Shown one piece after another: positions 888 to 16,211 of a stretch of DNA of 64,000 nucleotides. The notes beneath the pieces were generated by a model that saw nothing but the letters and a program-made list of their open reading frames with translations, made no database searches and was not told where the DNA came from. The stretch covers positions 130 through 64,129 of the forward strand of contig DAOLSP010000018.1 in NCBI GenBank assembly GCA_035419245.1. The letters are read 5' to 3'. How positions within the stretch are numbered: position 1 is the stretch's first letter; each line of letters starts with the position of its first letter. The position numbers were made by a program, and so were the translations under genes. The stretch is from a bacterium. Lineage in GTDB: Bacteria > Zhuqueibacterota > Zhuqueibacteria > Residuimicrobiales > Residuimicrobiaceae.

Positions 888-2891
888 ATGCTGTTTTTCG
901 TACAGGTTTTACAGCCGGCAGTTGCGGCTGCCAGGCAAAACTGGAGGGTGATGAGTCCGCGCAAACTGGCATTTTTTGATGGGCTGCTGCTGAATGTGCT
1001 CTTTCTGGCCATCCACTTTTTCGTCACCGGCACTCTGCGCCTGCCAACTGTTTATTTTAAACTGCTACTGCTACTTAACAGCGCCTGGCTCTTTTTTTCC
1101 TTGCTGGAACACAAGTTTTCGCTGCGCCATATCCATTCATTTGCTGAACTGGCGTTCAAACTCGTTCAAATTACCCTGCTCATGCTGCTCGCCGTCTCGC
1201 TGCTGCTGACTATTCAGGACGCCCGCGATTTCAACCGGCTCTATATCCTCGGCACCTTCGCCGGCTTATTGCTTGGCGAGTTGTTCATCGTCGGCCTCAA
1301 TTATCCCCGGGTTTATGCGGGCATGCTGCAGGCGGCGGAGCAGGCGCCGGCGCGCATGCGCTACCCCTATTCCATCCCCCTGATCTTTCTCGACCTGCTG
1401 CTCTTTATCCTGCTCTTCCTGTTTGTCTATTTTTTCAAGTATTCTACCTTCGAGCTGGAGCTGCGGCACTGGCAGCTCTTTGGCATCATGACCGGCATGT
1501 GGGTGCTCAGTGCCAAATGGACCGGGAAATTCGAGAAACGCAATCACCCCAGCTTTTATCACGCCTGCGAGCCCTTTGTCAAGGCCGCCTTCATCCTGGC
1601 CGCCGCGGCGGCGCTGCTGCTATATTCCTTCCATATCTTTAATTACTCACGCACCATCCTTTTCGCTCCGGTGGCCTTGCTGCCGCTTTTGGAGGCCCCG
1701 GTGGTGCTGATCTGGCACCGCGTCCGCTCGGTGGAACAGCCGGCGGACGAGGAGGATATCGAGAGCGCCCAGGGCATCCAGCGCTTCCTCGAGGAGACGG
1801 CCCTGGAGGTCAGTGCAGCGGATTCCTTCAGCGAATCGGCGCGCAGCAAGCTGGGCGAGTATATCCTCGTCAGCCATCCGGCCCTGCATGCCCTGATCGA
1901 ACGGCGCTGCAAACTGGACACTATCGCGGTCGAAGGCCTGGAGGTGATGGATACCCGCACCTCCTTCAACGTCCATACCCTCGAAAACCAGTCGCTGCAG
2001 ATGTTCGTCAACCTCCACCGCGTCAACGATTTCCGACGGCTCAATTACTATTTCCTCGAGGTGCATCAAAAACTGGTCAAGGGCGGCTATTTTATCGGCC
2101 TCATGGACACGGTCGATGCCGCCATGCTGCGGCTGCAGAAGAAATATCCCAAATATATGGCCTATGCCCTCTACGGTCTCGATTTTTTCTGGCGGCGGAT
2201 GATGCCCAAGATCCCCGGCCTCAACAAGATCTATTTCTCCATCTCGCGCGGCCGGCGCCGCCTCTTCTCCAAGGCGGAACTGCTCGGCCGCCTCTATTTC
2301 TGCGGTTTCCGGGTGCTGGCCGCCGAGAATCATGAGGGCCAGCTCTATTATGTGGCGCAAAAGGACAAGAAACTGAAACATGCCCAGGATCCCTCCTACG
2401 GCATGCTGATCCGGCTGCCGCGTGTCGGCTTTCAGGGGCGGCCTATCCTGCTTTACAAACTGCGCACCATGCACCCCTATTCCGAATTCATCCAGGCCTA
2501 TGTTTACAACCATCACAAGCTCGACAACGGGGGCAAGCTCAAGGACGATTTCCGCGTCGCTGCCTGGGGCAGGCTGCTGCGCAAGCTCTGGCTCGACGAG
2601 CTGCCGCAATTGATCAACTGGATGCACGGGGACCTCAAGATCGTGGGTGCGCGCGCCCTCTCGCCGCACTATTTCAGCCTCTATCCCGAGGATCTGCAGG
2701 CGCTGCGCATCCAGTTCAAGCCGGGGCTCATCCCGCCTTACTATGCCGACCTGCCACAGAGCCTGGAGGAGATCCAGGAGTCCGAACGGCGCTATTTCGC
2801 GGCCAAGCTGGCCCATCCCTTCAAAACGGACTGGATCTATTTCTTCAAGGCGATGTATAATATTCTCGTCAAACGGGCGAGAAGCAAGTAA
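888..2891 (+). CDS. Polyprenyl-phosphate glycosyl-phosphotransferase-like (bacterial sugar transferase, WbaP/EpsL-type C-terminal domain). It has an unusual, internally duplicated N-terminal membrane domain and a middle domain of unknown function.
   Basis: C-terminal motifs are typical of the Bac_transf family: LYKLRTMHPYSE (KFRTM-like), DELPQLINWMHGDLKIVG, KPGLIPPYYAD, but the canonical VGPRPE is replaced by IVGARALSPHY. A Shine-Dalgarno GGGAGGGGGAAATG lies upstream. 667 aa with several predicted TM helices. Confidence 0.7.
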   Translation: MLFFVQVLQPAVAAARQNWRVMSPRKLAFFDGLLLNVLFLAIHFFVTGTLRLPTVYFKLLLLLNSAWLFFSLLEHKFSLRHIHSFAELAFKLVQITLLMLLAVSLLLTIQDARDFNRLYILGTFAGLLLGELFIVGLNYPRVYAGMLQAAEQAPARMRYPYSIPLIFLDLLLFILLFLFVYFFKYSTFELELRHWQLFGIMTGMWVLSAKWTGKFEKRNHPSFYHACEPFVKAAFILAAAAALLLYSFHIFNYSRTILFAPVALLPLLEAPVVLIWHRVRSVEQPADEEDIESAQGIQRFLEETALEVSAADSFSESARSKLGEYILVSHPALHALIERRCKLDTIAVEGLEVMDTRTSFNVHTLENQSLQMFVNLHRVNDFRRLNYYFLEVHQKLVKGGYFIGLMDTVDAAMLRLQKKYPKYMAYALYGLDFFWRRMMPKIPGLNKIYFSISRGRRRLFSKAELLGRLYFCGFRVLAAENHEGQLYYVAQKDKKLKHAQDPSYGMLIRLPRVGFQGRPILLYKLRTMHPYSEFIQAYVYNHHKLDNGGKLKDDFRVAAWGRLLRKLWLDELPQLINWMHGDLKIVGARALSPHYFSLYPEDLQALRIQFKPGLIPPYYADLPQSLEEIQESERRYFAAKLAHPFKTDWIYFFKAMYNILVKRARSK

Positions 2892-2999
2892 GGCCGTTCC
2901 TACCCTGGAGAAGCAGGGTGGGAACGAGAGAATGGGCGGGTGGGAACCAGCGTAACCAGAGTAATCTGCGGGTACGAACCGGAGTATAACCAGGCATCC

Positions 3000-4502
3000 A
3001 TGAACAGGCATCTGCTGCTCGCACTTTTGACACTCCTTCCCCTTTACGCCCGGGCCCAGGATCAGGCTTCTACTTATTTCGATACGCCGGCTTTGACGCC
3101 TTTCCTCGGCTATGCCGTGCAGTCGGGCCGGATGCAGCTCCCCTTCGTCCTCAACCAGCCCTGGACCACCCTCGAGGTCCTCCAGGCGGCGCTCGGCAGC
3201 GCCCGCAAGGGCATGCCCCCCTGGCAGCAGCATTGGCTGCGGCTGCTGATCAAAGAGATCGCTTTGTACCATCGCGTGGAGAAGAACGAAACCGACGGCT
3301 TGGGCTATCTCGGCGCTCAGGGCTGGTACCGAGGCTTCAGCGATGATGCGGATCAATGGACCGAGGCGCGCGGCGAACTAGAGGGCAAATTCACCACCCC
3401 GTGGTTCGTCCTGGCGCAAAAGACCGTCCTCGACCAGCATTTCAAATTCGATCCCGCCTTCAGCGGCGACACCGGCGAGTGGATCTACGGCCGGGCCGAA
3501 ACCGGCTATCTCCTGGCGCAGTACAAGGGCGCGGCTTTTTTTCTCGGCCGCCTCAGCCGCAACTGGGGGCCGCCCGGCGAGAAGGGGCTGATCCTCTCCG
3601 ATAACCCCTACAGCTATGATACGGCCGGTTTCCAGCTCGGCAGCCGGCGCTTCCGCTTCTCCTTTTATACCAGCCGGCTCAACGATATGCACGGCATCGA
3701 TACCCAGTCGGCTGACTCCACCTGGAAGGAGTATACCCGCTTTTGGTCGATCAAGCGCTTCGACCTGGCGCTGCGTCCCAATCTGCAGATCGGCCTCGCC
3801 GAGGCGGCGGTCTATGGCGCGGTTAACGGCACCTGGCAGATGATCTATCTCAACCCCTTCAACCTCTACTACGTCGAGCAGCGCAACAACCGGGTACAAA
3901 TGAACGGCCTCTGGTGCGCCGACCTCTTCTGGAAGCCCGCTCCCCGGTTCACCCTGTACGGGCAGTATCTCATCGACGATATCATCGTCAATAACGAGCC
4001 GGGCCAGAACGACCGCGCCCGCCACCCCGACCGCATGGGGGTGACCGCGCGTGTGGTGGTCAGCGATCTGCCGGCCGCGGGGGCGCAACTCGGATTCACC
4101 TATACCCGCATAGGCAACTGGACCTACATGTCCTACCGCAATTATGAAAATTATCTTTCCAACGGCCTGAGCATGGGCTATCCGGCCAACCGCATCGAGC
4201 AGGCGGGGATCGATCTCTCCTGGTTCGGCTGGAAGGCCTGGGCAGTGCAGTTGCGGGCCGGTTATGCCCGCCAAGGGAGCCAGGATCTGACGGCCCCCTT
4301 CGGCGACACGCGCGAGTCCTTTCCGCTCGGTGTGGTTTCTTACTGGACCCGCGGCGAACTCTCGGTCAGCTATGTGCCCGCAATCTGGTGGGATGCGCGG
4401 CTCTTCGCCGCAATCGATCACCGCGATGCGCCGGCGGCCGTGGATCATTTCCGCATCGGCGCGGTATTGCATGTAAAGTATAGTGTGGCGGGGCGATTTT
4501 AG
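3000..4502 (+). CDS. Secreted outer-membrane beta-barrel-like protein in the polysaccharide locus (possibly a Wzi-like capsule assembly protein).
   Basis: Signal peptide MNRHLLLALLTLLPLYARAQ. The protein is aromatic/Gly-rich with an alternating pattern and ends in ...HVKYSVAGRF, the terminal-Phe OMP signature. The ORF track starts it at 2940; the internal Met at 3000 precedes the signal peptide. Confidence 0.5.
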   Translation: MNRHLLLALLTLLPLYARAQDQASTYFDTPALTPFLGYAVQSGRMQLPFVLNQPWTTLEVLQAALGSARKGMPPWQQHWLRLLIKEIALYHRVEKNETDGLGYLGAQGWYRGFSDDADQWTEARGELEGKFTTPWFVLAQKTVLDQHFKFDPAFSGDTGEWIYGRAETGYLLAQYKGAAFFLGRLSRNWGPPGEKGLILSDNPYSYDTAGFQLGSRRFRFSFYTSRLNDMHGIDTQSADSTWKEYTRFWSIKRFDLALRPNLQIGLAEAAVYGAVNGTWQMIYLNPFNLYYVEQRNNRVQMNGLWCADLFWKPAPRFTLYGQYLIDDIIVNNEPGQNDRARHPDRMGVTARVVVSDLPAAGAQLGFTYTRIGNWTYMSYRNYENYLSNGLSMGYPANRIEQAGIDLSWFGWKAWAVQLRAGYARQGSQDLTAPFGDTRESFPLGVVSYWTRGELSVSYVPAIWWDARLFAAIDHRDAPAAVDHFRIGAVLHVKYSVAGRF

Positions 4503-4850: not shown

Positions 4851-7115
4851 ATGCCTCCTGAAGATGCTGCCACGGCAAAAGAATGGGAACTGCGCGACTA
4901 TCTCGATCTTGCCCTCCGGCGCAAAACGGTGATTCTTATAGCCTTCATCCTGACCTTTCTGATCACGGCGGCCTATCAGCTTACGCGGACGCCGGTCTAC
5001 AGCGCCTTCACCTCATTTATCATCGACGAGTCCGCCAGCAGCTCCGGCGTCGGCTCGGAGCGCTATAATCCCTATGCCTACTGGATGGAACGGGGCAAAC
5101 CGATCGAATACTACCAGGCGATCATGGGGAGCCAGGTCTATCAGGTCAAAATCAGGGAGCGGGCCGGCCGCGATGCCGATCTCCTTGGCACGCCCGGCGT
5201 CACCCGTGAGCAGATCGACCGCGCTATCGCCAGCATCAGCCTGGGGATGGATGAAGAATCCAAGTTGATGACCATCTCCGTGCAGGCGTTCCATCCGCTC
5301 GTGGCCTTTAAAGTGGCGCAGATCGCCACCGATGTCTTCCGCGAGCGCAACCAGGAGATCGATGTCGAAAGCGCCCAGGACGTAGTGCGCTTCATCGACA
5401 AACAGCGCCAGGAGGCCCAGGACCGCCTCGAGGAAGCGGAGCGCGCCCTGCAGCAGTACAGCGGCGCCGGCCAGGTGGTCTTTATCGGCGACGACGGCGG
5501 CATGATGAGCAAGGTCGCCCAGGTGGAGTCCATCCTGGAACAGGCCGAAACCGAGCGCCGCCTGGCGGAGAGCAATTACGCTTCCTACACCATGCAGCTG
5601 GAGGCTGCGGGAAAACAAGGCAGCCTGCAGTCGGCCGAATCGTTCCCCGAGGTGGCCGACCTGCGGAAACGCCTCGATCAGCTCGAGGACCAGCGCAATG
5701 CCCTGGCGGTCGCGCCTCAGGCGGACAGCCTTGCCGCGGCGGAACTGGACCGCAAGATCGATAGCGTCAAGGCCGAGCTGCGCCGCGCTATCCTCGCCCA
5801 TTCGACCGAGGCGATGCCGACCGAAGACCGGAAGACCGATGAGATGCGCTCGATGCTGACGCAGAAAGTGGTTGCCGAGCAGATCAACCTCAGCTCGACC
5901 CGCAACCGCGAGCGCTTTTATAACAACCTGCTCGAGGAGTACCGCCGCCAGAGTCCGGAGCGGCTCGAAAAGACGATGGAGCTGGCGCGGCTGCGCCGCA
6001 CCCAGGCGGTCCACCAGAATCTTCTGAATTATCTCGTCGAGCGTCATGAAGAGGCCAAGATCAAGGCGGCGACCGGCGCCGGCGGCCTCCGTATTGTCAA
6101 TCCGGCGGCCCTGCCCGAGCGGCCGAACTCTCGCAATCTGCCGCGCACCCTGCTGATCGGAGCGATGCTGGGCCTGGGGCTGGGATTCGGTCTCGCCATG
6201 CTGCAGGAGTATCTCGACCAGACCGTGCGCACGCGGCAGGATCTCGAGCGGCTCACGGGGGTGCAGGTTGTCGGCCAGATCCCGCTGGCCATCAAACTGA
6301 ACGGCAACAACGGCCACACGCCCCGCACCGGCAGGGTCCGAGCCATGCTCGAAAAGCAGAGCAAAAAGCGGATGGATGGCCAGGGGGAAACGCCCTATTA
6401 TCCCCTGATCAACAAATATGATCCGCATGCACCCTTTGCCGAGGCTTTCCGCAGCCTGCGCACGGATCTGCAATTCTTCAGCATCGACAAGCCGCTCAAC
6501 AAGCTGCTGGTCACCAGCTCGATCCCCGGCGAGGGCAAGACCCTGGTGACCGCCAATCTGGCCATCTCCCATGCGGAGCTGGGCCACAAGGTGGTGATCC
6601 TGGATGCTGATATCCGCAAGCCCAAGCAGCCCACGGTCTTCGGCGTCGATCGCAAGCCGGGTTTCACCGATTATTTTATGGATCTGGTGCCTTACGAGAG
6701 CATTGTCCGCCATCTGCCGGTGCGCGGCCTCGATCTGATCCCCTCGGGCACCGTCCCGCCCAATGTCGGTGAGGTGCTCAACAGCCAAAAGATGGCCGAT
6801 CTGGTCGAACGGCTGGAGGCGGAATACGATTTTGTCCTGGTCGATGCGCCGCCGGTGCTCAGCATCAGTGATGCCAAGGCGCTCTCGCGTATCGTCGAGA
6901 ACCTGCTCCTTGTTTTCCGTTTCGCCAAAACCGAAAAGCATTATGTGCGCGAGGTGGTGGCCAATCTGCGAAACATCAAAGCCACGATTATCGGCTTTGT
7001 CTTCAACGGCATCGAGCTGGGCAGTGGCAAGGGGTATTACAAATACTACTATTACTCCGAGTACCGGGAAAAACTCGACACGCCGCGGGTTGTAGAATCG
7101 GCGCAGGTGAACTGA
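4851..7115 (+). CDS. Polysaccharide co-polymerase / BY-type tyrosine autokinase (Wzc/GumC/EpsG-like chain-length determinant with C-terminal kinase domain).
   Basis: The architecture is an N-terminal TM, a long coiled-coil periplasmic region, a second TM (LLIGAMLGLGLGFGLAML), then a cytoplasmic P-loop domain. Motifs are Walker A SSIPGEGKTLVTANLA, A' VVILDADIRKP, B FVLVDAPP and a C-terminal tyrosine cluster YYKYYYYSEY. Confidence 0.85.
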   Translation: MPPEDAATAKEWELRDYLDLALRRKTVILIAFILTFLITAAYQLTRTPVYSAFTSFIIDESASSSGVGSERYNPYAYWMERGKPIEYYQAIMGSQVYQVKIRERAGRDADLLGTPGVTREQIDRAIASISLGMDEESKLMTISVQAFHPLVAFKVAQIATDVFRERNQEIDVESAQDVVRFIDKQRQEAQDRLEEAERALQQYSGAGQVVFIGDDGGMMSKVAQVESILEQAETERRLAESNYASYTMQLEAAGKQGSLQSAESFPEVADLRKRLDQLEDQRNALAVAPQADSLAAAELDRKIDSVKAELRRAILAHSTEAMPTEDRKTDEMRSMLTQKVVAEQINLSSTRNRERFYNNLLEEYRRQSPERLEKTMELARLRRTQAVHQNLLNYLVERHEEAKIKAATGAGGLRIVNPAALPERPNSRNLPRTLLIGAMLGLGLGFGLAMLQEYLDQTVRTRQDLERLTGVQVVGQIPLAIKLNGNNGHTPRTGRVRAMLEKQSKKRMDGQGETPYYPLINKYDPHAPFAEAFRSLRTDLQFFSIDKPLNKLLVTSSIPGEGKTLVTANLAISHAELGHKVVILDADIRKPKQPTVFGVDRKPGFTDYFMDLVPYESIVRHLPVRGLDLIPSGTVPPNVGEVLNSQKMADLVERLEAEYDFVLVDAPPVLSISDAKALSRIVENLLLVFRFAKTEKHYVREVVANLRNIKATIIGFVFNGIELGSGKGYYKYYYYSEYREKLDTPRVVESAQVN

Positions 7116-8041
7116 TGGTGGAGCACTGCCGCTGGTATTCTATCGGAGATATTACGCTGCAGGTCGAGAGCGATCTGCCTTTTTCTTCCAATACTTTCAG
7201 TGATAAACTCGAGCTCTTTCGCATAGCTTCACCCGGTCCGGACGTGGTGACCGTGCGCCACCATTTCGGTCTGCCGGATATGGCCGGTTGGGATCTCAGC
7301 CGGGAGAAATACCGCCGCGAGCCCTGGGCGATCTACCAGACGGATAAGGGATGGATTTACCTGGGGATTCTGCCGCAGGGATTCGGAGAAAAGCTGTGGA
7401 AGGTGGTGGTATTTAGTCCGGAGCACTCGCAGGCCGATATCTATCATCCGGATGAGTTGGCGTTTGTCCAGGGCGGCGCAACTTCGTTGACCCTGTTTCC
7501 TTCGGATCAGATTTTGGTGGCGCGGCTGCTGGCTGACCGTTCCGGATGTTACCTGCATTCAGCCGGGGCAATTCTGGACGGCCATGGAATGCTCTTTGTC
7601 GGCCACTCCGAGGCGGGCAAATCGACGACCACGCAAATGCTGATCGATGCCGGGGCGCGCGGAGATCTGGCGGCGGAGATCCTCTGCGATGACCGCAACA
7701 TCGTACGGCGGTTTGATGACGGCTGGCGGGCTTATGGTTCCTGGAGTCATGGTGATATTCCTGTGGTCTCCGCCGCCTTGGCGCCGCTGCGGGCAATCTG
7801 TTTTATTGAAAAGTCGGCCAAGAACAGTTTGACGCCGTTGACCGACCGGCAGGAGATCATCCGGCGATTACTCGCCTGCGTGATCAAGCCGTTCGTCACC
7901 GCGGAGTGGTGGGAGAAAACCATCGATGTGGTGGCGCAGCTGGCAGCGGAAGCCAGGTTTTTTCTCATGCGTTTTGACAAGAGCGGTAAAATCGTCAGTG
8001 ATCTGGTCAGGATAGCTCGTTCATCAGAGCAGAACGGCTGA
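7115..8041 (+). CDS. HPr-kinase/phosphorylase-related P-loop protein (HprK-like kinase, copy 1), of the kind found in peptide-maturation neighbourhoods.
   Basis: P-loop FVGHSEAGKSTTTQMLIDAGA followed by ILCDDRNIVRR, matching HprK C-domain GxSGxGKS and the DD motif. Its ATG overlaps the Wzc stop (TGATG at 7113-7117). Paralog of 24493..25389. Confidence 0.7.
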   Translation: MVEHCRWYSIGDITLQVESDLPFSSNTFSDKLELFRIASPGPDVVTVRHHFGLPDMAGWDLSREKYRREPWAIYQTDKGWIYLGILPQGFGEKLWKVVVFSPEHSQADIYHPDELAFVQGGATSLTLFPSDQILVARLLADRSGCYLHSAGAILDGHGMLFVGHSEAGKSTTTQMLIDAGARGDLAAEILCDDRNIVRRFDDGWRAYGSWSHGDIPVVSAALAPLRAICFIEKSAKNSLTPLTDRQEIIRRLLACVIKPFVTAEWWEKTIDVVAQLAAEARFFLMRFDKSGKIVSDLVRIARSSEQNG

Positions 8042-8097
8042 ATTTTCCAGAAACGAAAGTTGGATCAGACCAGATTCGGGAGGGAATTTCTTAAATC

Positions 8098-9453
8098 ATG
8101 TCGTATGTTCGACGATTGTACCCTCATGAATTCCATGCCTGTCACAAGGAGCCGCTGCTCGAGCATCTTGATCTCGAGTTGACTGAACGCTGCAACAACG
8201 CCTGCATCCACTGCTGTATCAATCAGCCCGAGCACGACGCAGAATTGGCGGCCCGGGAGATGGATACGGCGTTTGTCAAGTATCTGTTGAGGCAGGCAGC
8301 TGATTTAGGTGCGATTTCTGTTCGCTTTACCGGCGGAGAGCCTTTATTGCGCAGTGATTTCACCGAGCTCTATCTCTTCGCCAGACGTTTGGGGATGCAG
8401 GTGACGCTCTTTACCAACGGCCGGCTTATCACTCCGGAACTGGCGCAGCTGCTGGCGATCATTCCGCCCGGCAAGCCGGTGGAGGTGACGGTCTATGGCA
8501 TGCACCCGGAATCCTACGACGCCGTGGCTGCCTGTCGAGGCGCTTTCGCGGAATTTTGGCGCGGCATCGGCCTGTTGCAAGAGTATGGCATTCGTTTCAC
8601 GGTCAAACAGAGTCTGCTGCCGCCCAACCGGGGCGAGAGAGCGGAATTCGAAACCTGGGCCGCGACGCTGCCGGAAATGAAACAGCTGTCCGGATACAGC
8701 ATGAATTTCGAGCTGCGCGGCCGCCGCGATCATCCGGCCAAAAACCGGCTCATCGAATCGTTCCGTCTCACGCCGGAGGAGACGGTGGCCCTGCTGGCGG
8801 AGCGTCCGGGATATATCGATGAGATGCGCCAGTTCTGCAGCAAATTCATGGCTCCCCCAGGAGAACTGGTTTTTCAGTGCGGTGCAGGCAAGGGCGTCAT
8901 GGTGGATGCTTATGGCAAAGCCCAGATGTGTATGGGGCTGCGCCACCCGGATTATGTCTACGATTTGTACCAAACCGCTCAAGCGGAGGCTGCTGGCATA
9001 TCACCACTGAAATTTGCATTGACACATGTTTTTCCTGAATGGCGCGAAATGAAGGCAGCCCACCCGGAGTATCTGAGCCGTTGCGCCCGTTGTTTTCTCA
9101 AGGGGCTGTGCGAACAGTGTCCCGCGCGTTCATGGCAGGAGCATGGTACGCTGGATACGCCGGTTGAGTATCTTTGCAATGTCGCTCATGCACAGGCTCG
9201 GCACCTGGGCCTCCTTGCAGCTGGCGAAAAAGCCTGGGAAGTAAAAAACTGGCGCGAGCGCATCGCCCGGTTCAGCAGCAGAGAAGCAGGTAAAGTTTTC
9301 AAAATGGAACTTAATGAAAAAAGGATAAATGATGGAAACCGCTCTCAATTTGAACAGCATCTGTACGCCGTCGGAAGATATCGTGGCGCGGGAGATCGAA
9401 GGCGAGTTGATCATCATCCCTCTTGCCGCCGGAATCGGCGATATGGAGGATGA
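8098..9453 (+). CDS. Radical SAM / SPASM-domain peptide-modifying enzyme (copy 1).
   Basis: rSAM motif LTERCNNACIHCC (CxxxCxxC), GGEPLL, and C-terminal SPASM cysteines (FQCGAGKGVMVDAYGKAQMC ... CARCFLKGLCEQCPARSW ... YLCNVAHAQA). An RBS GGGAGGGAA lies upstream. The last ~42 aa are an Arg-rich tail that overlaps the PqqD gene; see the A6-run finding. Confidence 0.9.
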   Translation: MSYVRRLYPHEFHACHKEPLLEHLDLELTERCNNACIHCCINQPEHDAELAAREMDTAFVKYLLRQAADLGAISVRFTGGEPLLRSDFTELYLFARRLGMQVTLFTNGRLITPELAQLLAIIPPGKPVEVTVYGMHPESYDAVAACRGAFAEFWRGIGLLQEYGIRFTVKQSLLPPNRGERAEFETWAATLPEMKQLSGYSMNFELRGRRDHPAKNRLIESFRLTPEETVALLAERPGYIDEMRQFCSKFMAPPGELVFQCGAGKGVMVDAYGKAQMCMGLRHPDYVYDLYQTAQAEAAGISPLKFALTHVFPEWREMKAAHPEYLSRCARCFLKGLCEQCPARSWQEHGTLDTPVEYLCNVAHAQARHLGLLAAGEKAWEVKNWRERIARFSSREAGKVFKMELNEKRINDGNRSQFEQHLYAVGRYRGAGDRRRVDHHPSCRRNRRYGG

Positions 9454-9637
9454 GCTATATACCCTGAACGAAACCGGCAAGGTGATCTGGGGCCGCATGG
9501 ATGGGAGTGCAACGCTCGGGCAGATCGCAGCAGCATTGGCCGATGAGTACAATGCGCCCTTGAATGAGATCGAGCAGGACGTGTTGGGATTGGTCAACGA
9601 AATGGTTCGACGGAAAATTATCCATGCAAAATCATAA
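9329..9637 (+). CDS. PqqD-family peptide chaperone (RiPP recognition element, RRE).
   Basis: 102 aa: EIEGELIIIP...LNETGKVIWGRMDGSATLGQIAAALADEYNAPLNEIEQDVLGLVNEMVRRKII, which matches the PqqD consensus LN.TA..IW.L.DG.RT..EI...L...Y......IE.DV..FL..L. Confidence 0.85.
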   Translation: MMETALNLNSICTPSEDIVAREIEGELIIIPLAAGIGDMEDELYTLNETGKVIWGRMDGSATLGQIAAALADEYNAPLNEIEQDVLGLVNEMVRRKIIHAKS

Positions 9638-9723
9638 ATCATGAGTTTTAGTTTTAATGTCTAATTCATGCTGGAAATGATCCGGCGTAATCACTCTTTC
9701 AATCTTAGCGGAGGAAAGCCAAG

Positions 9724-9897
9724 ATGAAAACCAATGCAAATCAGTGGAAAAAGCCGGAATTGCTCGTTCTGACTCGCAGTAACCCGGAAGAGGCTGTGTT
9801 GACCGGATGTAAAAATGTGACTATTAATGGCCCTAAGTCCGGACAGAAATACTGTCAGGGGCCAGTAGCCCAGTGTACGAACGTAGCTGGCAGTTGA
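9724..9897 (+). CDS. Precursor peptide (57 aa) with PqqA-like leader and three-Cys core: MKTNANQWKKPELLVLTRSNPEEAVLTGCKNVTINGPKSGQKYCQGPVAQCTNVAGS. Not in the ORF track because it is under 60 aa.
   Basis: Strong RBS GCGGAGGAAAGCCAAGATG. It lies immediately downstream of PqqD and the rSAM gene. The leader WKKPEL resembles the PqqA WKKPAF. A second copy with the same leader sits beside the paralogous rSAM at 23063..23245. Cys at positions 29, 44 and 51. Confidence 0.75.
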   Translation: MKTNANQWKKPELLVLTRSNPEEAVLTGCKNVTINGPKSGQKYCQGPVAQCTNVAGS

Positions 9898-10125
9898 AAA
9901 CGGCTGAGAAGGATCACTCAAGCACCTGGTTACTGATAAAGTAACAGGACTTCCAAAATCCTGAGAAGATATCATGGATTATTCAGGGTTCAGGAGCATG
10001 CGGAAGCAGTGTGCACATTTGTAAAGCAACCCCCGCTTCCAATGGAGAAAATAAAAGCGACGATGTCATCGTGATCCATAAACACCCCCAGCGTAATCTG
10101 ATCGTCTGAATGGAGGACGAATTGA

Positions 10126-10662
10126 ATGCGCCTGGGCAAGATTGCAAAGGGGATGCTGCGCCGGTTGCAGGACAGGGCGATCTATCGTTCTCTTTGGCGA
10201 AAGCTTGCCCCTCAACTCACGCTCCGAGAGGCATCAGACAGAGATTTGCTCCTCGTTCATCAATGGCTTAACGGCACCAGGGATTTCGAGCTGCAGCGCT
10301 CCCCGAACTTGACCGAATGGGTGGCTCTTTATCGTGGTCACATTGTTGGCTTTGTCCAACTGATTCGTTATCCGCAGGATAATGAACTTTATCAGGGGTA
10401 TTGGCTTTTCAGCATGAATGTCAAACCGCTCCGGCGCGGAATGGGAATTGGCAGTGCATTAACACGAACCGTAATAAATCGTGCTTGCGATGAAAGTGCG
10501 CCTTTTCTGGATTTGCTGGTTTTCGAGGATAATCTGCGCGCAATCAGGCTCTACGCCAAAATGGGATTTGAGCCCTGCATAATCCCGGCGCTAGAGCCCT
10601 CACTTGAAAAGGAACGGGAAGTATATGGCCGACGCCGGCTGGTGATGCGGAAAGTATTCTGA
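10126..10662 (+). CDS. GNAT-family N-acetyltransferase.
   Basis: QGYWLFSMNVKPLRRGMGIGSALTRTVINRA...RAIRLYAKMGFEP, i.e. GNAT motifs A and B. RBS GGAGGA upstream. Confidence 0.75.
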   Translation: MRLGKIAKGMLRRLQDRAIYRSLWRKLAPQLTLREASDRDLLLVHQWLNGTRDFELQRSPNLTEWVALYRGHIVGFVQLIRYPQDNELYQGYWLFSMNVKPLRRGMGIGSALTRTVINRACDESAPFLDLLVFEDNLRAIRLYAKMGFEPCIIPALEPSLEKEREVYGRRRLVMRKVF

Positions 10663-10875: not shown

Positions 10876-11493
10876 GTGATCTGTTCCTTGACCAACAAAG
10901 AATGTAAAAGGTCGGATGAAACCTGCCGTTACCGCATCTATCGTCTCAGCAAACGCACCGATAATAGCTGTGTCTATCTTGAGGACAATCGCTGCTCCAA
11001 TTATGAAATACGGCCGCAGGTATGCCGCGATTTCCACTGCCAGACAGGTTGGAAGCTCGCTTCGGTCTTTCCCGATTCCAGCGTATTGGGAGATGGAGGC
11101 TCGACGCTCACCCTGGACCGTTTTCTCGACCAGATCACGGATGACGCAGTATTTGTGCCGCATCCGCTTATCAAGGTACATGCTGTTTTTTACCTGCGGC
11201 CCAAACAGTCTATTATTTTTGTTAAAGAGATGGTTGGCGGTTGCGGCAAATTCAACAGCAGAGATGATCTATATTCTCCGCTGCTCGATGATGACAAGTT
11301 GATGCTGTTGATCGGCCTTTTTACATACAAGGAAACTTTGGGGCAGCTTTTCACGAGATTTACAGACCAGGCGGCTGTTGCCTTGAGTCGCAGAGAGTTT
11401 CTCACACTGGTTTGGCTGCTCAATAAACATAATATCGTCATTGATTCGCGCAATTTCAGGGGCATGCTGGCCGGCATGGGCGGAATTGAGTAA
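10876..11493 (+). CDS. YkgJ/UPF0153-type cysteine-cluster (putative Fe-S or zinc) protein.
   Basis: CxxC...C pattern NKECKRSDETC ... SCVYLEDNRCSNYEIRPQVCRDFHC, typical of YkgJ-family CxxCxxCC domains. Apparent GTG start, so start uncertain. Confidence 0.5.
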   Translation: MICSLTNKECKRSDETCRYRIYRLSKRTDNSCVYLEDNRCSNYEIRPQVCRDFHCQTGWKLASVFPDSSVLGDGGSTLTLDRFLDQITDDAVFVPHPLIKVHAVFYLRPKQSIIFVKEMVGGCGKFNSRDDLYSPLLDDDKLMLLIGLFTYKETLGQLFTRFTDQAAVALSRREFLTLVWLLNKHNIVIDSRNFRGMLAGMGGIE

Positions 11494-11566
11494 CGAAGGC
11501 TGTCATATCACGTTCATCAGTGATCCTTCACGGCAAACCCTGCCCAACCCGGAATTCGCTGAACTG

Positions 11567-11992
11567 ATGGCGGCGGTTCTGGCCAAGGGCACTCTTTTCA
11601 GGTTTCAGGCCAGCGGCAGCAGTATGGCCCCCTTCATCAGAGGGGGGGATGTACTTACCTTTGCGCCAATCACCAAACCTCCTGGTCTGGGGGAAATAGC
11701 AGCTTTTCGTCAGCCTGTAACCGGGCGGCTGATGGTGCACCGGATCATCCGCCGGCGTCAAGGTCTTTTTCTTATCAAAGGTGATAACAGCTGCCATCAT
11801 GATGGTTGGGTGCCCTCAGAGAATATTCTTGGCCGCGTTAGCCGCATTGAACATCGGGAGCGAACGGTTCGGTTGGGCCTGGGCTGGGAGCGCATTCCGA
11901 TCGCAGCACTCTCACGGCTCGGCCTACTGTGGCCCCTCTCACAGGCAATGCGCCGGCTGTTGCGGCCGGTTTATAAAAGGTTTTTTGCATGA
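11567..11992 (+). CDS. Small soluble S24/S26-family serine peptidase (LexA/signal-peptidase fold). Candidate leader peptidase.
   Basis: FRFQASGSSMAPFIRGGDVLTF matches the S26/S24 nucleophile box (GxSMxP...GD). No TM segment. The ORF track starts it at a TTG at 11441, the internal Met at 11567 is more plausible, and the gene ends in ATGA overlap with the downstream rSAM gene. Confidence 0.6.
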   Translation: MAAVLAKGTLFRFQASGSSMAPFIRGGDVLTFAPITKPPGLGEIAAFRQPVTGRLMVHRIIRRRQGLFLIKGDNSCHHDGWVPSENILGRVSRIEHRERTVRLGLGWERIPIAALSRLGLLWPLSQAMRRLLRPVYKRFFA

Positions 11993-13113
11993 CCCATACG
12001 TCATCGATAGAGATTCAGGATTTCGCTCTTTGGCAAAAACTCGAGGCCAAACGCGCCCTCTTCAGCTTTGACCTGGACCTGACCGCCCGCTGCAACCTCA
12101 ACTGCCGCCACTGCTATATCAACCTGCCGGCGGGAGATGAAGCGGCCCGGGCGAAGGAACTCTCCCTGGAGGAGATCGGCCGCATCGCCGATCAGGCGAT
12201 CGAACTCGGCGCGCTTTGGTGCCTGCTCACCGGCGGCGAGCCGCTGCTGCGGCCTGATTTCCCCGACATCTACCTCATGCTCAAGCGCAAGGGGCTGCTG
12301 ATCTCGCTCTTTACCAATGCGACCCTGGTGCGGCCGGAGCACATCGCGCTGTTCACAAAGTACCCGCCACGCGATATCGAGGTGACCATCTATGGGGCCT
12401 CAGCCGCAACCTATGAGCGCGTCACCCGCCGGCCAGGCGCCTTTGCACAGTTCATCACCGGCCTCGACGCCCTTTTCGCGGCCGGCATCAGGGTGCGCCT
12501 TAAGGCGATGGCCCTGCGCTCCAATCTTGAGGATATGGAGGCGATCGCCGCCTTCGGCCGCAGCCGCACCAAGGATTACTATCGCTTCGATCCCCAGCTG
12601 CACCTGCGCTATGACCGCGATCCGGTGCGCAACGAGGAGATCAGGGCGGAGCGGCTCACCCCCGCAGATGTGACGGACATGGAGAGGGCCGACGCTGAGC
12701 GCTTCGGTTCGTTGCTGAAGGGCTGCGATGAGCTGATAAACGAAGCTTTCACCCATGCCGGCTGCGACCATCTTTTTCACTGCGGCGCCGGCAACGGCAG
12801 CTGCAGCATCGGCTATGACGGAACCTTCCGCCTCTGCCAGTCGCTCTGGGCGCCGGGCACCACGGCCAACTTGCGCGAGGTGCCGCTGCGTCAGGCCTGG
12901 GAGGAACTGGTGCCGCGCGTGCGCGACCTGCGTTCCCGGGATCCGCAGTTCCTGCAAAGCTGCCGTGCATGTGCGATCGTGAATCTCTGTCTGTGGTGCC
13001 CGGCCCACGCCCATCTCGAGACCGGGCGGATGGACGGAGAAACCCCCTTCTTTTGCGCCGTCGCTCATGCCAGAGCGCAAGCGCTACAAAGCGCAATATT
13101 TGACGAAAAGTGA
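11989..13113 (+). CDS. Radical SAM / SPASM-domain enzyme (copy 3, paralog of 8098..9453 and 23288..24496).
   Basis: LTARCNLNCRHCYINLP (CxxxCxxC), GGEPLL, SPASM Cys cluster FHCGAGNGSCSIGYDGTFRLC...CRACAIVNLCLWCPAHAH...FFCAVAHARA. Colinear similarity to the other two rSAMs (FDLDLTARCN vs LDLELTERCN, ERLTPAD vs FRLTPEE). Confidence 0.9.
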   Translation: MTHTSSIEIQDFALWQKLEAKRALFSFDLDLTARCNLNCRHCYINLPAGDEAARAKELSLEEIGRIADQAIELGALWCLLTGGEPLLRPDFPDIYLMLKRKGLLISLFTNATLVRPEHIALFTKYPPRDIEVTIYGASAATYERVTRRPGAFAQFITGLDALFAAGIRVRLKAMALRSNLEDMEAIAAFGRSRTKDYYRFDPQLHLRYDRDPVRNEEIRAERLTPADVTDMERADAERFGSLLKGCDELINEAFTHAGCDHLFHCGAGNGSCSIGYDGTFRLCQSLWAPGTTANLREVPLRQAWEELVPRVRDLRSRDPQFLQSCRACAIVNLCLWCPAHAHLETGRMDGETPFFCAVAHARAQALQSAIFDEK

Positions 13114-13291: not shown

Positions 13292-14545
13292 ATGACGATC
13301 CGACGCATCCTTGGCTTGTTCTTTGTCATCATGGCCGGAGCCGCACCGGCGCAGAGCGGCGAGTTCGGTGATCTCTATGCCCGCCTCGCGCGTCACGGTT
13401 TCGAGAATCTGCGCATCGCCGCCACGGCCGACAGCGGTCTGGCCATCGCCTTTGAGAACCGTGTTTACCGCCACGATCTCAAGGCCGTCGGCGAGATGCT
13501 AAAGCTGGCCGGCCAGGCCGATTCAACCTGGCAGCGCCTGTACATCATCCCCTGCAGCCGCGGCGTCGCACGCGGTCAGATTATGGTGCTGCGCGCCGCC
13601 TACCGCGCCTTCATGGACGGCTCGATGGATGCCCCGGCTTTCAGCCGGACGCTGGTCATCGGCGAAGCGACGCAACAGCCGGAAGCGGCGGTGCAGGCCT
13701 GGCAGAACCGCTCCTTTTTCAAGCTGGATCTCAATGTGACCTTCGGCCACCAGATCCAGCTTGGGCAGTATGACGACCGCGTCAAGCTCTACGGCCAGGT
13801 CCAGCCCGGACTGCGCAGCCAGCTATGGCACGGCACCCTGGTCCAGGCGGAGGCCTTTATCCCGGTCTTTGACGAGATCGGCGTCTATGATACCGGCGCC
13901 CGGCTCGGCCGGCTCAGCGTCAGTCAGCTCTTACGCCTGCCGCGCGACAGTTATCTGGCCCTTCAGGGCGGGATCTTTATGCCGGAGCGCTGGGGCTTCT
14001 CGGGTGAGACCGCAAAATTCTGGCTGGGCCGCAGGGTCCTGACCGGCATCAAATTGGACTATACCGGCTTTTTCTACCATAGCGAGGGCACGTGGTATTA
14101 CTCGAACATGGACAGCCTGACCTATAAAGTCTATGCGCAGTATTTTCTCCCCAGCCTGGATATGATGGTGGGGATCGATTACAGCAAATATCTGATCGGC
14201 GACAAGGGACCCTGCTTCACCCTGCGCCGGACGTTCTCTGAAACCGATATCGAACTGTATTATGCAGTCACCAATCTCGACCGCTTCGGCGGCGTGCGCT
14301 TCCGTTTTCCCCTGCCGACGCAGCAGCGGATGCGTCCCGCCCGGGTGCGCCTGACCTGGCCCAGCCAGTACGGCATGAGCTACCAGGCCACCAGCGAAGC
14401 GACGCGCTACGAGGGGGTGCTGCAAACCGGGCTCAGCGTGGATCCGGGTTTTGCTATCAGCGAGTTCGTCAAACCGCTCACTCCGGCGCATGTCCTGGCC
14501 AATATCAAGGGGTGGCGCGAGGGGGATGACACGGCCAATGAATGA
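13292..14545 (+). CDS. Secreted protein with signal peptide. Putative outer-membrane/exopolysaccharide-associated protein of unknown function.
   Basis: Signal peptide MTIRRILGLFFVIMAGAAPAQS. Aromatic/Gly-rich, 417 aa. No catalytic motifs recognised. Confidence 0.4.
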   Translation: MTIRRILGLFFVIMAGAAPAQSGEFGDLYARLARHGFENLRIAATADSGLAIAFENRVYRHDLKAVGEMLKLAGQADSTWQRLYIIPCSRGVARGQIMVLRAAYRAFMDGSMDAPAFSRTLVIGEATQQPEAAVQAWQNRSFFKLDLNVTFGHQIQLGQYDDRVKLYGQVQPGLRSQLWHGTLVQAEAFIPVFDEIGVYDTGARLGRLSVSQLLRLPRDSYLALQGGIFMPERWGFSGETAKFWLGRRVLTGIKLDYTGFFYHSEGTWYYSNMDSLTYKVYAQYFLPSLDMMVGIDYSKYLIGDKGPCFTLRRTFSETDIELYYAVTNLDRFGGVRFRFPLPTQQRMRPARVRLTWPSQYGMSYQATSEATRYEGVLQTGLSVDPGFAISEFVKPLTPAHVLANIKGWREGDDTANE

Positions 14546-14579
14546 TACCGATATCAACCTAACAGGGAGGAAACAAACC

Positions 14580-16211
14580 ATGAAACAATGGCCAAAAATC
14601 GGGTGGGTACTGGCACTGTTGCTCATGGTGCTGGCCATCGGCTGCGAACAGGTCTCCGATCCCGGAACCGTCGCACAATTCCAGACGGCGAGCAACGCGA
14701 CTTTGTTCAGCACGGCGACCGGCGTGAGCAAGACGACCTTTTATTCCTATGAAAACGTCCTGCTCACTTTCGAGGATCTCTATCCCAATGAACAGACCGA
14801 CGTGCAGATCATTCGCAAAAGCGACGGCCATATGATCAAGCGTATGCTGGTCATAACCGACGGCACCGGCGCCATCCGCGATCTGCCGATCTGGTTTTTC
14901 AACAACTACCGCAAACCGGGCGAACTCGGCGGCGAACATAACTTTTTCGTTCACCTCGAGCAGCCGGGCGTGGACCGGCCCTGGAAAATCTTCACCATTC
15001 TCTTCCACAGCCAGGAAACGTTGCCCTCCGATCCGCAGTTGCGGGTGACGGATGCGGCCGGCAATTTTGCGGGCGGTGCATTATTTGTCGGCAACCCGGT
15101 CTATGTCGCCGGCAGCAAGATCGGCGTCAAAGCCACCGTACAGCTGCTGATGGTGGCCGACAAGAGCATCTATACCACGGGCGATGTGCTCACCGACCTG
15201 AGCGACAATGGCATCGAGACGACCAAGACCGAGAAGAACGGTCTGCTCGGGCCGGTCAAAATTTGCAACGCCGCGGCGGTCGGAGCGTATGATATCGTCG
15301 CCGATACTGCGCCCTTTGGCGTCTACAATGCGGGCGACGTCGTCAGCGATGCCGCTTTCCCCGGCCTCCTGGTTCAGAACCATTCGGGTGCAAGCGATAT
15401 CATCCAGGACATCGCCTGCGATGCGACCGGTTTTTACAAGAACCAGTTCGATTCGCTCGAAATCGTCTATGCCAAGGTGAACGCGCTCACCCGGCCCGGT
15501 TATGTGCCGAGCGAGTTCGTCAATCTTTTCATCACGCCGCACAAACCGGTCTGGAACAAGGGGGACGCCCTCTTCAGCATGCGCACCGTCGGCACCTTTG
15601 AGATGCCGGTGCAGTGCATCTGGAACGGATATGCCGGCTATCTGCCCCTGATCCGCATGCACGGTGGCAGCCTGGCCAGTGACGACGCCCCCATCAGAAT
15701 GTGGCCCGGCGAATATGATGTCATCCTGGACGTCGACCGCAACTATACTTATGATCCCGGCATCGATATCCTCGATGGCGGCGCGGCGCCCGGTTTCACT
15801 GTGCCTGGCAAAGTCCCGCCCGTGCGCTTCGCCGTCACCGCCGATAATGATTTCCTTGGCCGTGAGGCCGGAAATCCGAACATCTGGGGTTATTTCCGCG
15901 ACCAGATCAGCACCAAGGTCTGGGGCGTGCTGGTGGATAAAGACGGCATTCCCATCAGCTCCATTCCGGTCAACTATGCCATCACCTCCGGTCCTGGCAG
16001 CCTGAGTGCCGCCTCGGCAGTCACCGGGCTCAACGGCGGCGCCTGGGTGGTCTTTTCGGGCGGCACGTATGGCGCCGGCACAGTGGTGCAGCTCACCTGC
16101 CGGGTGAACGATGTGGATTATACCAAGAGCATCCGCATTTTCCGCAAGATTCCGTTCAGCCACAATCAGGGCGTCATCGTGCACAATCAGGGCACGGTGA
16201 GTGGCAATTAG
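14580..16211 (+). CDS. Lipoprotein of unknown function.
   Basis: Lipobox MKQWPKIGWVLALLLMVLAIGC with RBS AGGGAGGAAAC upstream. The ORF track starts at 14451, but the Met at 14580 precedes the signal peptide. Confidence 0.5.
   Translation: MKQWPKIGWVLALLLMVLAIGCEQVSDPGTVAQFQTASNATLFSTATGVSKTTFYSYENVLLTFEDLYPNEQTDVQIIRKSDGHMIKRMLVITDGTGAIRDLPIWFFNNYRKPGELGGEHNFFVHLEQPGVDRPWKIFTILFHSQETLPSDPQLRVTDAAGNFAGGALFVGNPVYVAGSKIGVKATVQLLMVADKSIYTTGDVLTDLSDNGIETTKTEKNGLLGPVKICNAAAVGAYDIVADTAPFGVYNAGDVVSDAAFPGLLVQNHSGASDIIQDIACDATGFYKNQFDSLEIVYAKVNALTRPGYVPSEFVNLFITPHKPVWNKGDALFSMRTVGTFEMPVQCIWNGYAGYLPLIRMHGGSLASDDAPIRMWPGEYDVILDVDRNYTYDPGIDILDGGAAPGFTVPGKVPPVRFAVTADNDFLGREAGNPNIWGYFRDQISTKVWGVLVDKDGIPISSIPVNYAITSGPGSLSAASAVTGLNGGAWVVFSGGTYGAGTVVQLTCRVNDVDYTKSIRIFRKIPFSHNQGVIVHNQGTVSGN

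Follow-up and report, generated by a model that had tools for sequence, protein, structure and literature searches.

A Probable ScmC-Type Peptide Maturation Pathway Overlapping wzc in a Polysaccharide Operon of a Residuimicrobiaceae Bacterium

Introduction

What are genes for the maturation of a ribosomal peptide doing inside a polysaccharide operon? This question is raised by a 64,000-nucleotide stretch of DNA from a bacterium of the family Residuimicrobiaceae (Zhuqueibacterota; GenBank assembly GCA_035419245.1, contig DAOLSP010000018.1, positions 130 to 64,129 of the forward strand), which is referred to here, at its full length, as the window. On its plus strand, the gene for Wzc, a polysaccharide co-polymerase (PCP) fused to a bacterial tyrosine (BY) autokinase, runs directly into genes for a P-loop protein, a radical S-adenosylmethionine enzyme with a SPASM-type Cys motif (rSAM/SPASM), a PqqD-family protein, and a 57-residue Cys-containing peptide. 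A PqqD protein, rSAM/SPASM enzymes, and a Cys-rich peptide with a conserved leader constitute the standard maturation logic of rSAM-dependent RiPPs (peptides made by the ribosome and modified after translation). An initial annotation, made from the sequence alone, had recognized these genes, ended the cassette at position 9897, described the P-loop protein as an HprK-like kinase, and proposed a peptide tied to polysaccharide assembly or a phosphopeptide signal. Our analysis leaves little doubt that the locus is a RiPP cassette of the ScmC type. On balance, it also favors the fuller proposal that the genes form a complete RiPP pathway, resembling those of the ScmC/SynChlorMet type, which is built into the polysaccharide operon and translationally coupled to wzc.

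Results

Genes of the cassette. The identities first assigned to Wzc, the P-loop protein, the rSAM/SPASM enzyme, PqqD, and the 57-residue Cys peptide are borne out by family models, motifs, and homologues. The initial boundary at 9897 does not hold. The cassette continues to 13113 and includes a GNAT acetyltransferase, an S24/S26-like peptidase, and a second rSAM/SPASM enzyme. Its features, together with wzc, are as follows.

4851..7115, plus strand: Wzc-type polysaccharide co-polymerase fused to a BY tyrosine autokinase, 754 aa (TIGR01007)
7113..7117, plus strand: TGATG stop/start overlap of wzc and scmC (translational coupling), read directly from the sequence
7115..8041, plus strand: ScmC-family P-loop protein with a predicted HprK/PEPCK fold, 308 aa; proposed kinase for the C-terminal Ser of the precursor
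8098..9453, plus strand: radical SAM/SPASM enzyme 1 (rSAM1; PF04055, 1.5e-18; CNNACIHC; SPASM-type C-x2-C-x5-C-x2-C)
9329..9637, plus strand: PqqD-family peptide chaperone, a RiPP recognition element (RRE; PF05402, 58.1 bits, cut-off 23.4)
9724..9897, plus strand: 57-aa precursor peptide, MKTNANQWKKPELLVLTRSNPEEAVLTGCK / NVTINGPKSGQKYCQGPVAQCTNVAGS, with a GGAGGA ribosome-binding site and homologues in 67 loci
10126..10662, plus strand: GNAT acetyltransferase, an accessory tailoring enzyme (PF00583, 59 bits)
10876..11493, plus strand: CxxCxxCC-type Cys-cluster protein (weak match; PF03692, 21.4 bits, cut-off 23), membership in the cassette uncertain
~11441..11992 (start codon uncertain), plus strand: S24/S26 signal-peptidase-like protease of the Ser/His type, proposed leader peptidase (PF00717, 25.9 bits, cut-off 23.3)
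11989..13113, plus strand: radical SAM/SPASM enzyme 2 (rSAM2; PF04055, 83 bits; PF13186 SPASM, 22.3 bits)

The wzc–scmC junction. The reported overlap between the wzc stop codon and the ATG of the P-loop gene was read directly in the sequence. Base 7115 is common to the TGA of wzc and the ATG of the 308-codon open reading frame (ORF), such that the junction reads CAGGTGAAC-TGATG-GTG, and a Shine–Dalgarno-like AGGTGA lies 5 nt upstream of the scmC start. The overlap is kept in eight relatives with ScmC identities of 58–87%. Seven of them (loci L089, L090, L091, L093, L009, L010, and L015) retain the junction CAGGTGAAYTGATG (TGATG), and the eighth (L011) has TAATG. Because wzc and scmC overlap, a terminator between them is impossible. 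Terminator-like sites occur at chance level (22 found versus 18.5 expected), and promoter-like sites (14 found versus a shuffle mean of 7.0, sd 2.9) define no operon boundary. An Rfam scan of positions 1–27000 at E <= 0.1 returned no riboswitch or other RNA, such as a c-di-GMP element, and no tRNA genes were found.

ScmC, the P-loop protein. A database protein from an unclassified metagenome-assembled genome (MAG) is 100% identical to the window protein over its full length and carries a precomputed match to the Pfam family PF27840, ScmC. The same match is found on all 120 listed homologues, placing the protein in this family. A Walker A motif, GHSEAGKS, begins at residue 163 and is followed by LCDDRNIV. 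In an alignment of 30 homologues, G163, G168, K169, and T171 of Walker A are invariant, as are L190, D193, and R194 of the second motif, in which D192 is present in at least 90%. Matches in an NCBIfam scan at E <= 0.01 were limited to ScmC (TIGR04249, 27.9 bits, cut-off 125) and HprK-related kinase B (16.8 bits); TIGR00679, the HPr(Ser) kinase model, was absent among them. A Pfam scan against a library without the PF27840 model returned no family, Hpr_kinase_C included.

The predicted fold of ScmC matches those of PEPCK and HPr kinase, in the latter the P-loop kinase fold of the C-terminal domain. A sequence-profile search against all PDB chains gave only generic P-loop matches to ABC ATPases (E ~1e-3). 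Beyond the Walker A motif this profile told nothing, and only the comparison of folds was informative. The original term "HprK-like kinase" is therefore right at the level of the fold, but the protein is not a member of the HprK/P family. Identity as a bona fide HprK was rejected on score cut-offs. A motif search of all six frames of the window found no HPr active-site or Ser46-region motif.

Many distant loci encode ScmC as the C-terminal half of rSAM-SPASM~ScmC proteins of ~650 aa (L014, 8960-10951; L021, 8933-10894; L049, 8942-10924). The N-terminal half is a third rSAM/SPASM domain, giving these cassettes three. Representative proteins of 635–679 aa match the ScmC profile only in their C-terminal half (from about residue 326–371), as a fusion predicts. 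In addition, locus L021, from a Methanotrichaceae MAG, encodes GNAT and the signal-peptidase-like protease as one 340-aa protein (6719-7741). The two kinds of fusion indicate that the parts of the cassette belong together.

Radical SAM/SPASM enzymes and PqqD. Both rSAM proteins contain a CxxxCxxC motif and a C-terminal SPASM Cys motif. These are CNNACIHC and CARCFLKGLCEQC in rSAM1, which is not matched by the Pfam SPASM model PF13186, and CNLNCRHC and CRACAIVNLCLWC in rSAM2, orthologues of which occur in most loci. The best NCBIfam matches of rSAM1, all under their cut-offs, are AhbD, ScmF, StsB, ScmE, PqqE, and AlbA. For rSAM2, ScmF (93.8 bits) and ScmE (77.3 bits) both fall below the 400-bit cut-off. 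Sub-threshold matches of the cassette rSAM proteins include the AlbA, StsB, PapB, PqqE, and ScmE/F models, in line with RiPP maturation by rSAM enzymes. No housekeeping equivalog cut-off was reached by either enzyme in the NCBIfam scan, and identities as sulfatase or heme maturases were rejected on this basis.

PqqD scores above its gathering threshold and lies 86 nt upstream of the precursor gene, in keeping with a role as an RRE; its sub-threshold matches include the lasso PqqD and ScmD models. Alignment with relatives gives ATG 9332 as its likely start. The rSAM1 ORF extends 125 nt into pqqD. In relatives, a TAA stands ~10 nt before the pqqD ATG, which corresponds to an rSAM1 end near 9326, and the window has a 2-nt indel near 9311 relative to them. 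The last 42 codons of rSAM1 thus form a tail out of frame, which leaves the enzyme domains intact and is more simply explained by a mutation or an assembly error than by a programmed frameshift or a fusion. The latter two were considered and rejected, given the plain TAA in relatives and the indel in the window.

The precursor family. All small ORFs of the related loci were searched by jackhmmer, seeded with the window peptide. The 112 matches collapse to 96 unique precursors from 67 loci, and because of these homologues the 57-aa ORF is a real gene and not a chance ORF. Its leader ends in the invariant CK, its sequence contains three Cys, and its C-terminus is CTNVAGS. The family leader reads (M)KKKW-x-K-P-E-L-[IV]-V-L-x-R-x-x-P-E-E-x-V-L-x-x-C-K, with W, P, L, R, EE, VL, and CK near invariant. 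The core that follows is variable, ~30 residues long, with three to four Cys when the CK cysteine is included. Ser is the C-terminal residue of 83 of the 96 precursors and Thr that of another 7 (90/96 together); in small ORFs of the same DNA the background is 12% Ser and 5% Thr. The last Cys stands exactly six residues before the end (C-x5) in 79 of 92 precursors, which makes C-x5-S the typical terminus. No family covering these peptides was found in Pfam, NCBIfam, or the source names, and the precursor family is previously unannotated.

Some genomes encode 2–10 precursor paralogues, with four in L001. In L023 (10977-18612, a Dehalococcoidia MAG), more than 10 tandem paralogues share the leader, have hypervariable cores, and each end in Ser or Thr. 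A leader-motif search of the window returned only the precursor at 9724, to which a profile search added a divergent second one at 23063-23251.

The near-invariant terminal Ser/Thr fits C-terminal phosphorylation of the kind performed by the HprK-like kinases of lasso peptides. The earlier idea of a phosphopeptide thereby gains support and a specific form: the precursor sequences suggest the C-terminal Ser within C-x5-S as the candidate site.

Protease, tailoring, and export. Thirty-seven homologues of the peptidase conserve G-x-S61-M-x-P, H100-R101, and G114-D115, which we take to be the Ser/His pattern of ER-type (SipW-like) signal peptidases of family S26. Its stop codon overlaps the rSAM2 ATG. 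GNAT lies within the cassette in L001, L006, L007, L011, L058, and L085 as well. For the CxxCxxCC-type protein, whose gene lies in a block of low G+C content (GC), no homologue was found in the 88 related loci. This block, 9724-11493, comprises the precursor, GNAT, and CxxCxxCC genes at GC 0.45–0.52, as compared to 0.56–0.63 for the flanking cassette genes and 0.586 for the window, and it holds two intergenic gaps of >200 nt. The block is absent from L009, L010, and L015, where the precursor lies between scmC and rSAM1, and it looks like a later insertion or replacement.

The initial annotation placed the cassette upstream of an ABC exporter. The exporter is present but stands 7 kb downstream, past three envelope or exopolysaccharide-type genes.

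13292..17025, plus strand: three envelope genes (YjbH-like, Big_1-containing, YjbH-like) between rSAM2 and the exporter (PF06082, 42 and 48 bits; weak Big_1 match)
17145..18983, plus strand: ABC exporter with fused transmembrane and ATPase domains and without a C39 peptidase domain (PF00005, 107 bits)

A YjbH-like gene also follows rSAM2 in L009 and L010. The exporter matches cassette-adjacent ABC genes elsewhere (L041, L056, L052, L016, and others) at phmmer E values of 1e-120 to 1e-167, which marks it as the cognate exporter of the cassette. Two overlapping plus-strand ORFs directly follow it, 19100-19966 (HD-CE/HD domain) and 19491-20738 (KaiC-like ATPase match).

Conservation and distribution. 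The ORFs of 88 related loci were all compared with the window proteins, and an unbiased clustering was performed on 1,049 ORFs from 85 non-redundant loci. The conserved core consists of ScmC, rSAM1, PqqD, the S24/S26-like peptidase, and rSAM2, with GNAT, an NTP_transf_5 nucleotidyltransferase, and the ABC exporter as frequent accessories. By clustering, ScmC/rSAM is found in 84 of the 85 loci, PqqD in 57, peptidase/GNAT in 56, and the ABC exporter and NTP_transf_5 in 27 each. With E <= 1e-30 as the limit, a profile search of 1.84 billion representative proteins (50% identity clusters) returned 248 clusters, and with E <= 1e-10 it returned 3,218; by a scan of species genomes, at least 248 of these contain relatives. 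The 80 loci retrieved span Chloroflexota, Actinomycetota, Desulfobacterota-type lineages, Omnitrophota, Aminicenantes, Planctomycetota, Acidobacteriota, and Chlorobiaceae; the methanogens Methanocella, Methanoregula, and Methanotrichaceae are also among them. The one genome of a cultured organism encountered was that of Methanocella sp. MCL-LM (NZ_CP187259).

Association with polysaccharide genes. The Wzc protein exceeds the cut-offs of TIGR01007 (156.2 bits, cut-off 108) and GNVR (30.1 bits, cut-off 27.7) and matches Wzz weakly (21.4 bits, cut-off 25.5). With its autokinase domain, its GNVR/Wzz region, and a C-terminal Tyr cluster, YYKYYYYSEY, it belongs to the BY-kinase/PCP-2a type. A tight series of plus-strand ORFs runs through wzc and onward, beginning with a sugar-phosphate transferase gene.

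888..2891, plus strand: large membrane protein with a C-terminal Bac_transf (polyprenyl-phosphate sugar-phosphate transferase) domain (PF02397, 68 bits, cut-off 27, residues 506–617)
2940..4502, plus strand: Wzi-like outer-membrane protein (weak match; PF14052 Caps_assemb_Wzi, 5e-4, under the cut-off)

The first protein also matches TIGR03025 (5e-25, under the cut-off) and has an orthologue in the same place in L001; orthologues of the Wzi-like gene are found in L001, L007, and L011. Long minus-strand ORFs of 383–642 aa (1647-3356, 3378-4529, and 5013-6941) lie antisense to the transferase, Wzi-like, and wzc genes and are probable shadow ORFs of GC-rich coding DNA.

Across the 85 loci, the PCP/BY-kinase is the commonest neighbor family outside the genes for peptide maturation, tailoring, and export, being found in 14. 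By clustering and Pfam, it is followed by a methyltransferase (13/85), a DegT aminotransferase (6/85), a GT4 glycosyltransferase (5/85), and a PIG-L deacetylase (3/85); six families occur in 4/85 each, namely a WecA-like transferase, Wza (Poly_export), Wzy_C, an AAA_22 + HD_5 protein, an FAD-binding protein, and a radical SAM protein with DUF512. Outside the clade of the window, full-length Wzz/BY-kinase genes lie within 10 kb in L004, L006, L008, L026, L053, L055, L058, and L067, and the BY-kinases of L006, L026, and L053 exceed the TIGR01007 cut-off; L069 and L088 have a Wzz/GNVR-type match only. At least one glycan marker is present in 28 of the 85 loci and in 19 of the 42 loci of at least 15 kb.

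Several of these arrangements are operon-like. PIG-L, DegT, WecA-like, GT4, NTP5, ScmC, and onward genes follow one another as overlapping ORFs in L069 and L076, and L066 has the order rSAM2, PIG-L, DegT, one further ORF, WecA-like. NTP5 is followed by a BY-kinase on the same strand in L006, L026, L053, and L058, and a Wzb-type low-molecular-weight phosphotyrosine phosphatase stands directly before ScmC in L008. Genomes encode few BY-kinases; the pairing with glycan genes is therefore more than we would expect by chance. The cassette recurs beside genes for Wzc-type kinases and sugar assembly, in operon-like order and in phyla that are unrelated, which suggests that the peptide acts together with surface-glycan assembly. 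The peptide is probably a regulator or partner of the glycan machinery, or a glycan-bearing peptide, rather than an unrelated bacteriocin. That the cassette as a whole is functionally tied to glycan assembly we judge to be slightly less likely than not.

Discussion

Proposed pathway. In the pathway that we propose, PqqD would bind the 57-aa precursor through its conserved leader. The two rSAM enzymes would then modify the three-Cys core, most plausibly, by analogy with related maturases, by forming Cys-derived thioether-type cross-links. ScmC, with ATP, would phosphorylate the near-invariant C-terminal Ser (Ser57). The Ser/His signal-peptidase-like protease would cut off the leader, GNAT may optionally acetylate the product, and the ABC transporter would export it. 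For the phosphorylation step, we lean toward ScmC as the enzyme and the precursor C-terminal Ser as its substrate, an assignment drawn from the lasso peptides. To our knowledge, the lasso-peptide kinases are the only characterized HprK-superfamily enzymes in peptide pathways. In the maturation of paeninodin and pseudomycoidin, the C-terminal Ser of the precursor is phosphorylated by an HprK homologue, and pseudomycoidin then requires PsmN, an uncharacterized protein of the NTP-transferase family, for the attachment of one or two hexoses to the phosphate (PMC8498205, PMC6993621, PMC12639078). The NTP_transf_5 partner found in 27 of the 85 loci fits a phosphorylation/glycosylation reaction of this lasso type.

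Five points weigh against an integrated pathway of this kind. About two-thirds of the loci (57/85) have no recognizable glycan gene within 10 kb. The enrichment of glycan neighbors is an internal ranking combined with general knowledge of BY-kinase rarity, not a comparison with genome background frequencies. The low GC of the precursor/GNAT/CxxCxxCC part fits a mobile insertion into a variable locus. The NTP_transf_5 gene, which would support a phosphoglycosyl step, is absent from the cassette of the window. Finally, our search of the literature on the ScmC-type cassette found no paper, and no member studied experimentally.

Possible incidental co-location. The first and third of these points are also what a free-standing RiPP cassette, encoding a bacteriocin or a signal, would produce if it were lodged incidentally in polysaccharide loci, either because such glycan islands are variable and horizontally exchanged or because regulation is shared, for example with the biofilm state. 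This explanation is possible and carries real weight, though we doubt it. The order of the cassette genes is shuffled between lineages, a dedicated ABC exporter lies within the cassette, some genomes (L001, L023) have several precursor paralogues as bacteriocin loci do, and a second cassette in the window shares the low GC (0.47–0.51). Yet the wzc stop/start overlap has been kept through the divergence of ScmC in the eight relatives. Moreover, the recurrent families outside the cassette's own genes are led by glycan genes and not by the commoner transporters, regulators, or transposases, and different glycan genes join the operon with overlapping ORFs in different phyla, which points to repeated independent selection of the pairing. 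The tie to polysaccharide assembly proposed at the outset thus has comparative support across phyla, but not in the two-thirds of sampled loci without a polysaccharide neighbor, and its functional side stays provisional.

A possible glycan carrier. A bolder form of the proposed pathway makes the peptide a carrier or cap for glycan. ScmC would phosphorylate the C-terminal Ser, and the phosphate would then be glycosylated, by NTP_transf_5 where it is present and, in the window, by the machinery of the neighboring sugar-phosphate transferase. This would yield a glycopeptide linked through phosphate, possibly a polysaccharide that the peptide primes or terminates and that Wzc, Wza, and Wzy handle. 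Such a role would explain why genes for Wzc-type kinases, WecA-like transferases, GT4, DegT, PIG-L, Wza, and Wzy recur in operon with the cassette across phyla. We nevertheless consider it unlikely.

Possible activation of the C-terminal serine. ScmC might instead activate the C-terminal Ser: phosphorylation would be followed by elimination to dehydroalanine and by attack of the Cys six residues upstream, giving a lanthionine-type ring and a phosphate-free product. The fixed C-x5-S spacing is suggestive of such a structural link between the Cys and the terminal Ser, and class II–IV lanthipeptide synthetases are well established to form dehydro-amino acids by this route of phosphorylation and then elimination. 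Phospeptin is a stalled case of this route (PMC12639078). This chemistry is, in our estimation, distinctly improbable. No lyase or cyclase homologue was recognized in the cassette by the Pfam and NCBIfam scans, the two rSAM/SPASM enzymes already account for the Cys chemistry, and the phosphate is retained in the products of the only characterized HprK-type RiPP kinases.

An improbable alternative: housekeeping enzymes. The last explanation, a genuine HPr kinase/phosphorylase beside cofactor- or sulfatase-maturation rSAMs and a spurious small ORF, draws on the HprK fold of ScmC and on the heme and heme-d1 enzymes AhbD and NirJ among the top NCBIfam matches of the rSAM proteins, but it is extremely improbable given that those matches reach 85–102 bits against a cut-off of 500, that ScmC has no TIGR00679 match at E <= 0.01 and the window no HPr-like motif, that the small ORF has homologues with a conserved leader in 67 loci, and that PqqD and a leader-peptidase-like gene accompany the set in 57 and 56 of the 85 loci.

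A second cassette and other genes of the window. A second, divergent Scm-type cassette, missed in the initial annotation, lies on the minus strand at 21104-25560, with GC 0.47–0.51 against 0.586 for the window.

24493-25560, minus strand: ScmC paralogue (TIGR04249, 37.6 bits; HprK-related kinase B, 30 bits; TIGR00679, 18.8 bits, cut-off 240)
23288-24496, minus strand: rSAM/SPASM gene, overlapped by the stop codon of the ScmC paralogue
23063-23251, minus strand: 62-aa precursor with the same leader type, ending in CDTYAAS (C-x5-S)
21957-22850, minus strand: UPF0489 protein
21104-21943, minus strand: methyltransferase

No PqqD gene was seen within 21104-25560. The low GC suggests that the second cassette was acquired horizontally. 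Further genes of the window include the following.

26191-29943, minus strand: 1250-aa sensor histidine kinase with Reg_prop/Y_Y_Y and GAF domains
31018-32868, minus strand: protein with a type IX secretion C-terminal sorting domain
33006-33563, minus strand: redoxin-like protein
36074-38503, minus strand: ABC exporter with a C39 peptidase domain, bacteriocin type

Type IX secretion is typical of Bacteroidota and their relatives.

Significance. If the proposed pathway is correct, the locus represents an uncharacterized and widespread RiPP class, whose 248 clusters (50% identity) are spread over many bacterial phyla and methanogenic archaea. Such a class would bring together cross-linking by rSAM/SPASM enzymes and phosphorylation at the C-terminus, the latter known to date only from lasso peptides. 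The precursor family, with its conserved leader and C-x5-Ser end, and the full enzyme set, including a signal-peptidase-type leader protease, make the class directly testable. The recurrent pairing with Wzc-type kinases and glycan-assembly genes raises the testable idea, which we did not find in the literature searched, that the assembly of surface polysaccharides may involve a ribosomal peptide, whether as component, regulator, or acceptor. Should the pairing prove incidental, the locus would still be a good entry to a new peptide natural product from uncultured anaerobes.

Comparison with known systems

The flanks of the cassette resemble Wza-Wzb-Wzc loci of the PCP-2a/BY-kinase type in having a sugar-phosphate transferase, an outer-membrane protein, a Wzc with a Tyr cluster, and YjbH-like proteins. 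We know of no described Wzc locus in which a RiPP maturation cassette is translationally coupled to wzc. A literature search for a RiPP cassette with an exopolysaccharide tyrosine-kinase locus likewise found none; one paper that turned up mentions HPr kinase only in lasso clusters. HPr kinase/phosphorylase itself differs from ScmC, whose sequence matches neither the HprK model nor solved HprK chains significantly, whose N-terminal domain is different, and which stands in a context of peptide maturation with no HPr motif nearby.

The closest counterpart of the cassette is SynChlorMet, described by Haft and represented in NCBIfam by ScmC (TIGR04249), ScmD (TIGR04248), ScmE (TIGR04250), and ScmF (TIGR04251). 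The architecture had initially been thought to lack a characterized counterpart, but its parts list was already catalogued computationally as this uncharacterized system, and Pfam has a ScmC family. SynChlorMet shares an HprK-like P-loop protein, a PqqD homologue, and two PqqE-like rSAM/SPASM proteins, which are encoded in the window at 7115-8041, 9329-9637, and 8098-9453 plus 11989-13113; both families are uncharacterized, and ScmC is the best NCBIfam match of the window P-loop protein. The scores are low throughout: 27.9 bits for ScmC (7115-8041) and 37.6 bits for its paralogue (24493-25560) against a cut-off of 125, 20.9 bits for ScmD against 100, and 84.8 and 93.8 bits for ScmF and 64.4 and 77.3 bits for ScmE against 400. 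The cassette proteins of a Methanocella relative likewise fall under these cut-offs. With all four proteins so far below the equivalog cut-offs, the window cassette is a member of a large sister family, within the wider Pfam family ScmC, and is not a catalogued SynChlorMet cassette. As compared to SynChlorMet, the window family adds the signal-peptidase-like protease, an identifiable precursor family, and, in some loci, GNAT, NTP_transf_5, and the ABC exporter; in the window itself, it is also tied to wzc.

The phosphorylated lasso peptides paeninodin (PadeK) and pseudomycoidin (PsmK/PsmN) offer a second parallel. As here, the genes for an HprK-superfamily kinase, a leader-binding protein of the PqqD type, and an ABC exporter are neighbors, and the substrate peptide ends in Ser, which in the lasso systems is the site of phosphorylation; many clusters also encode an uncharacterized NTP-transferase (PMC8498205, PMC6993621). 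The window provides the kinase fold in ScmC and the Ser-ending precursor in CTNVAGS. Its ScmC is likened to PadeK/PsmK, and NTP_transf_5 to PsmN, by description and not by sequence. The lasso cyclase (an Asn-synthetase-like C protein) and the B2 leader protease have no counterpart domains among the ORFs of 888-20738 in the Pfam and NCBIfam scans. In contrast to the lasso systems, maturation in the window would be performed by rSAM/SPASM enzymes on a Cys-rich core, and no NTP-transferase is present.

Sactipeptide and ranthipeptide pathways, with maturases such as AlbA, StsB, PapB, and the SCIFF enzymes, share the rSAM/SPASM maturases, the PqqD-type recognition element, and the Cys-rich core. 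They differ from the window family, which has its recognition element as a protein of its own, devotes two rSAM enzymes (elsewhere three) to each peptide, adds a kinase-fold enzyme and a protease of the signal-peptidase type, and shows a leader and a C-x5-S end that match no described class. By analogy with both groups, the cassette would work like a hybrid of a sactipeptide/ranthipeptide pathway and the tailoring system of a phosphorylated lasso peptide.

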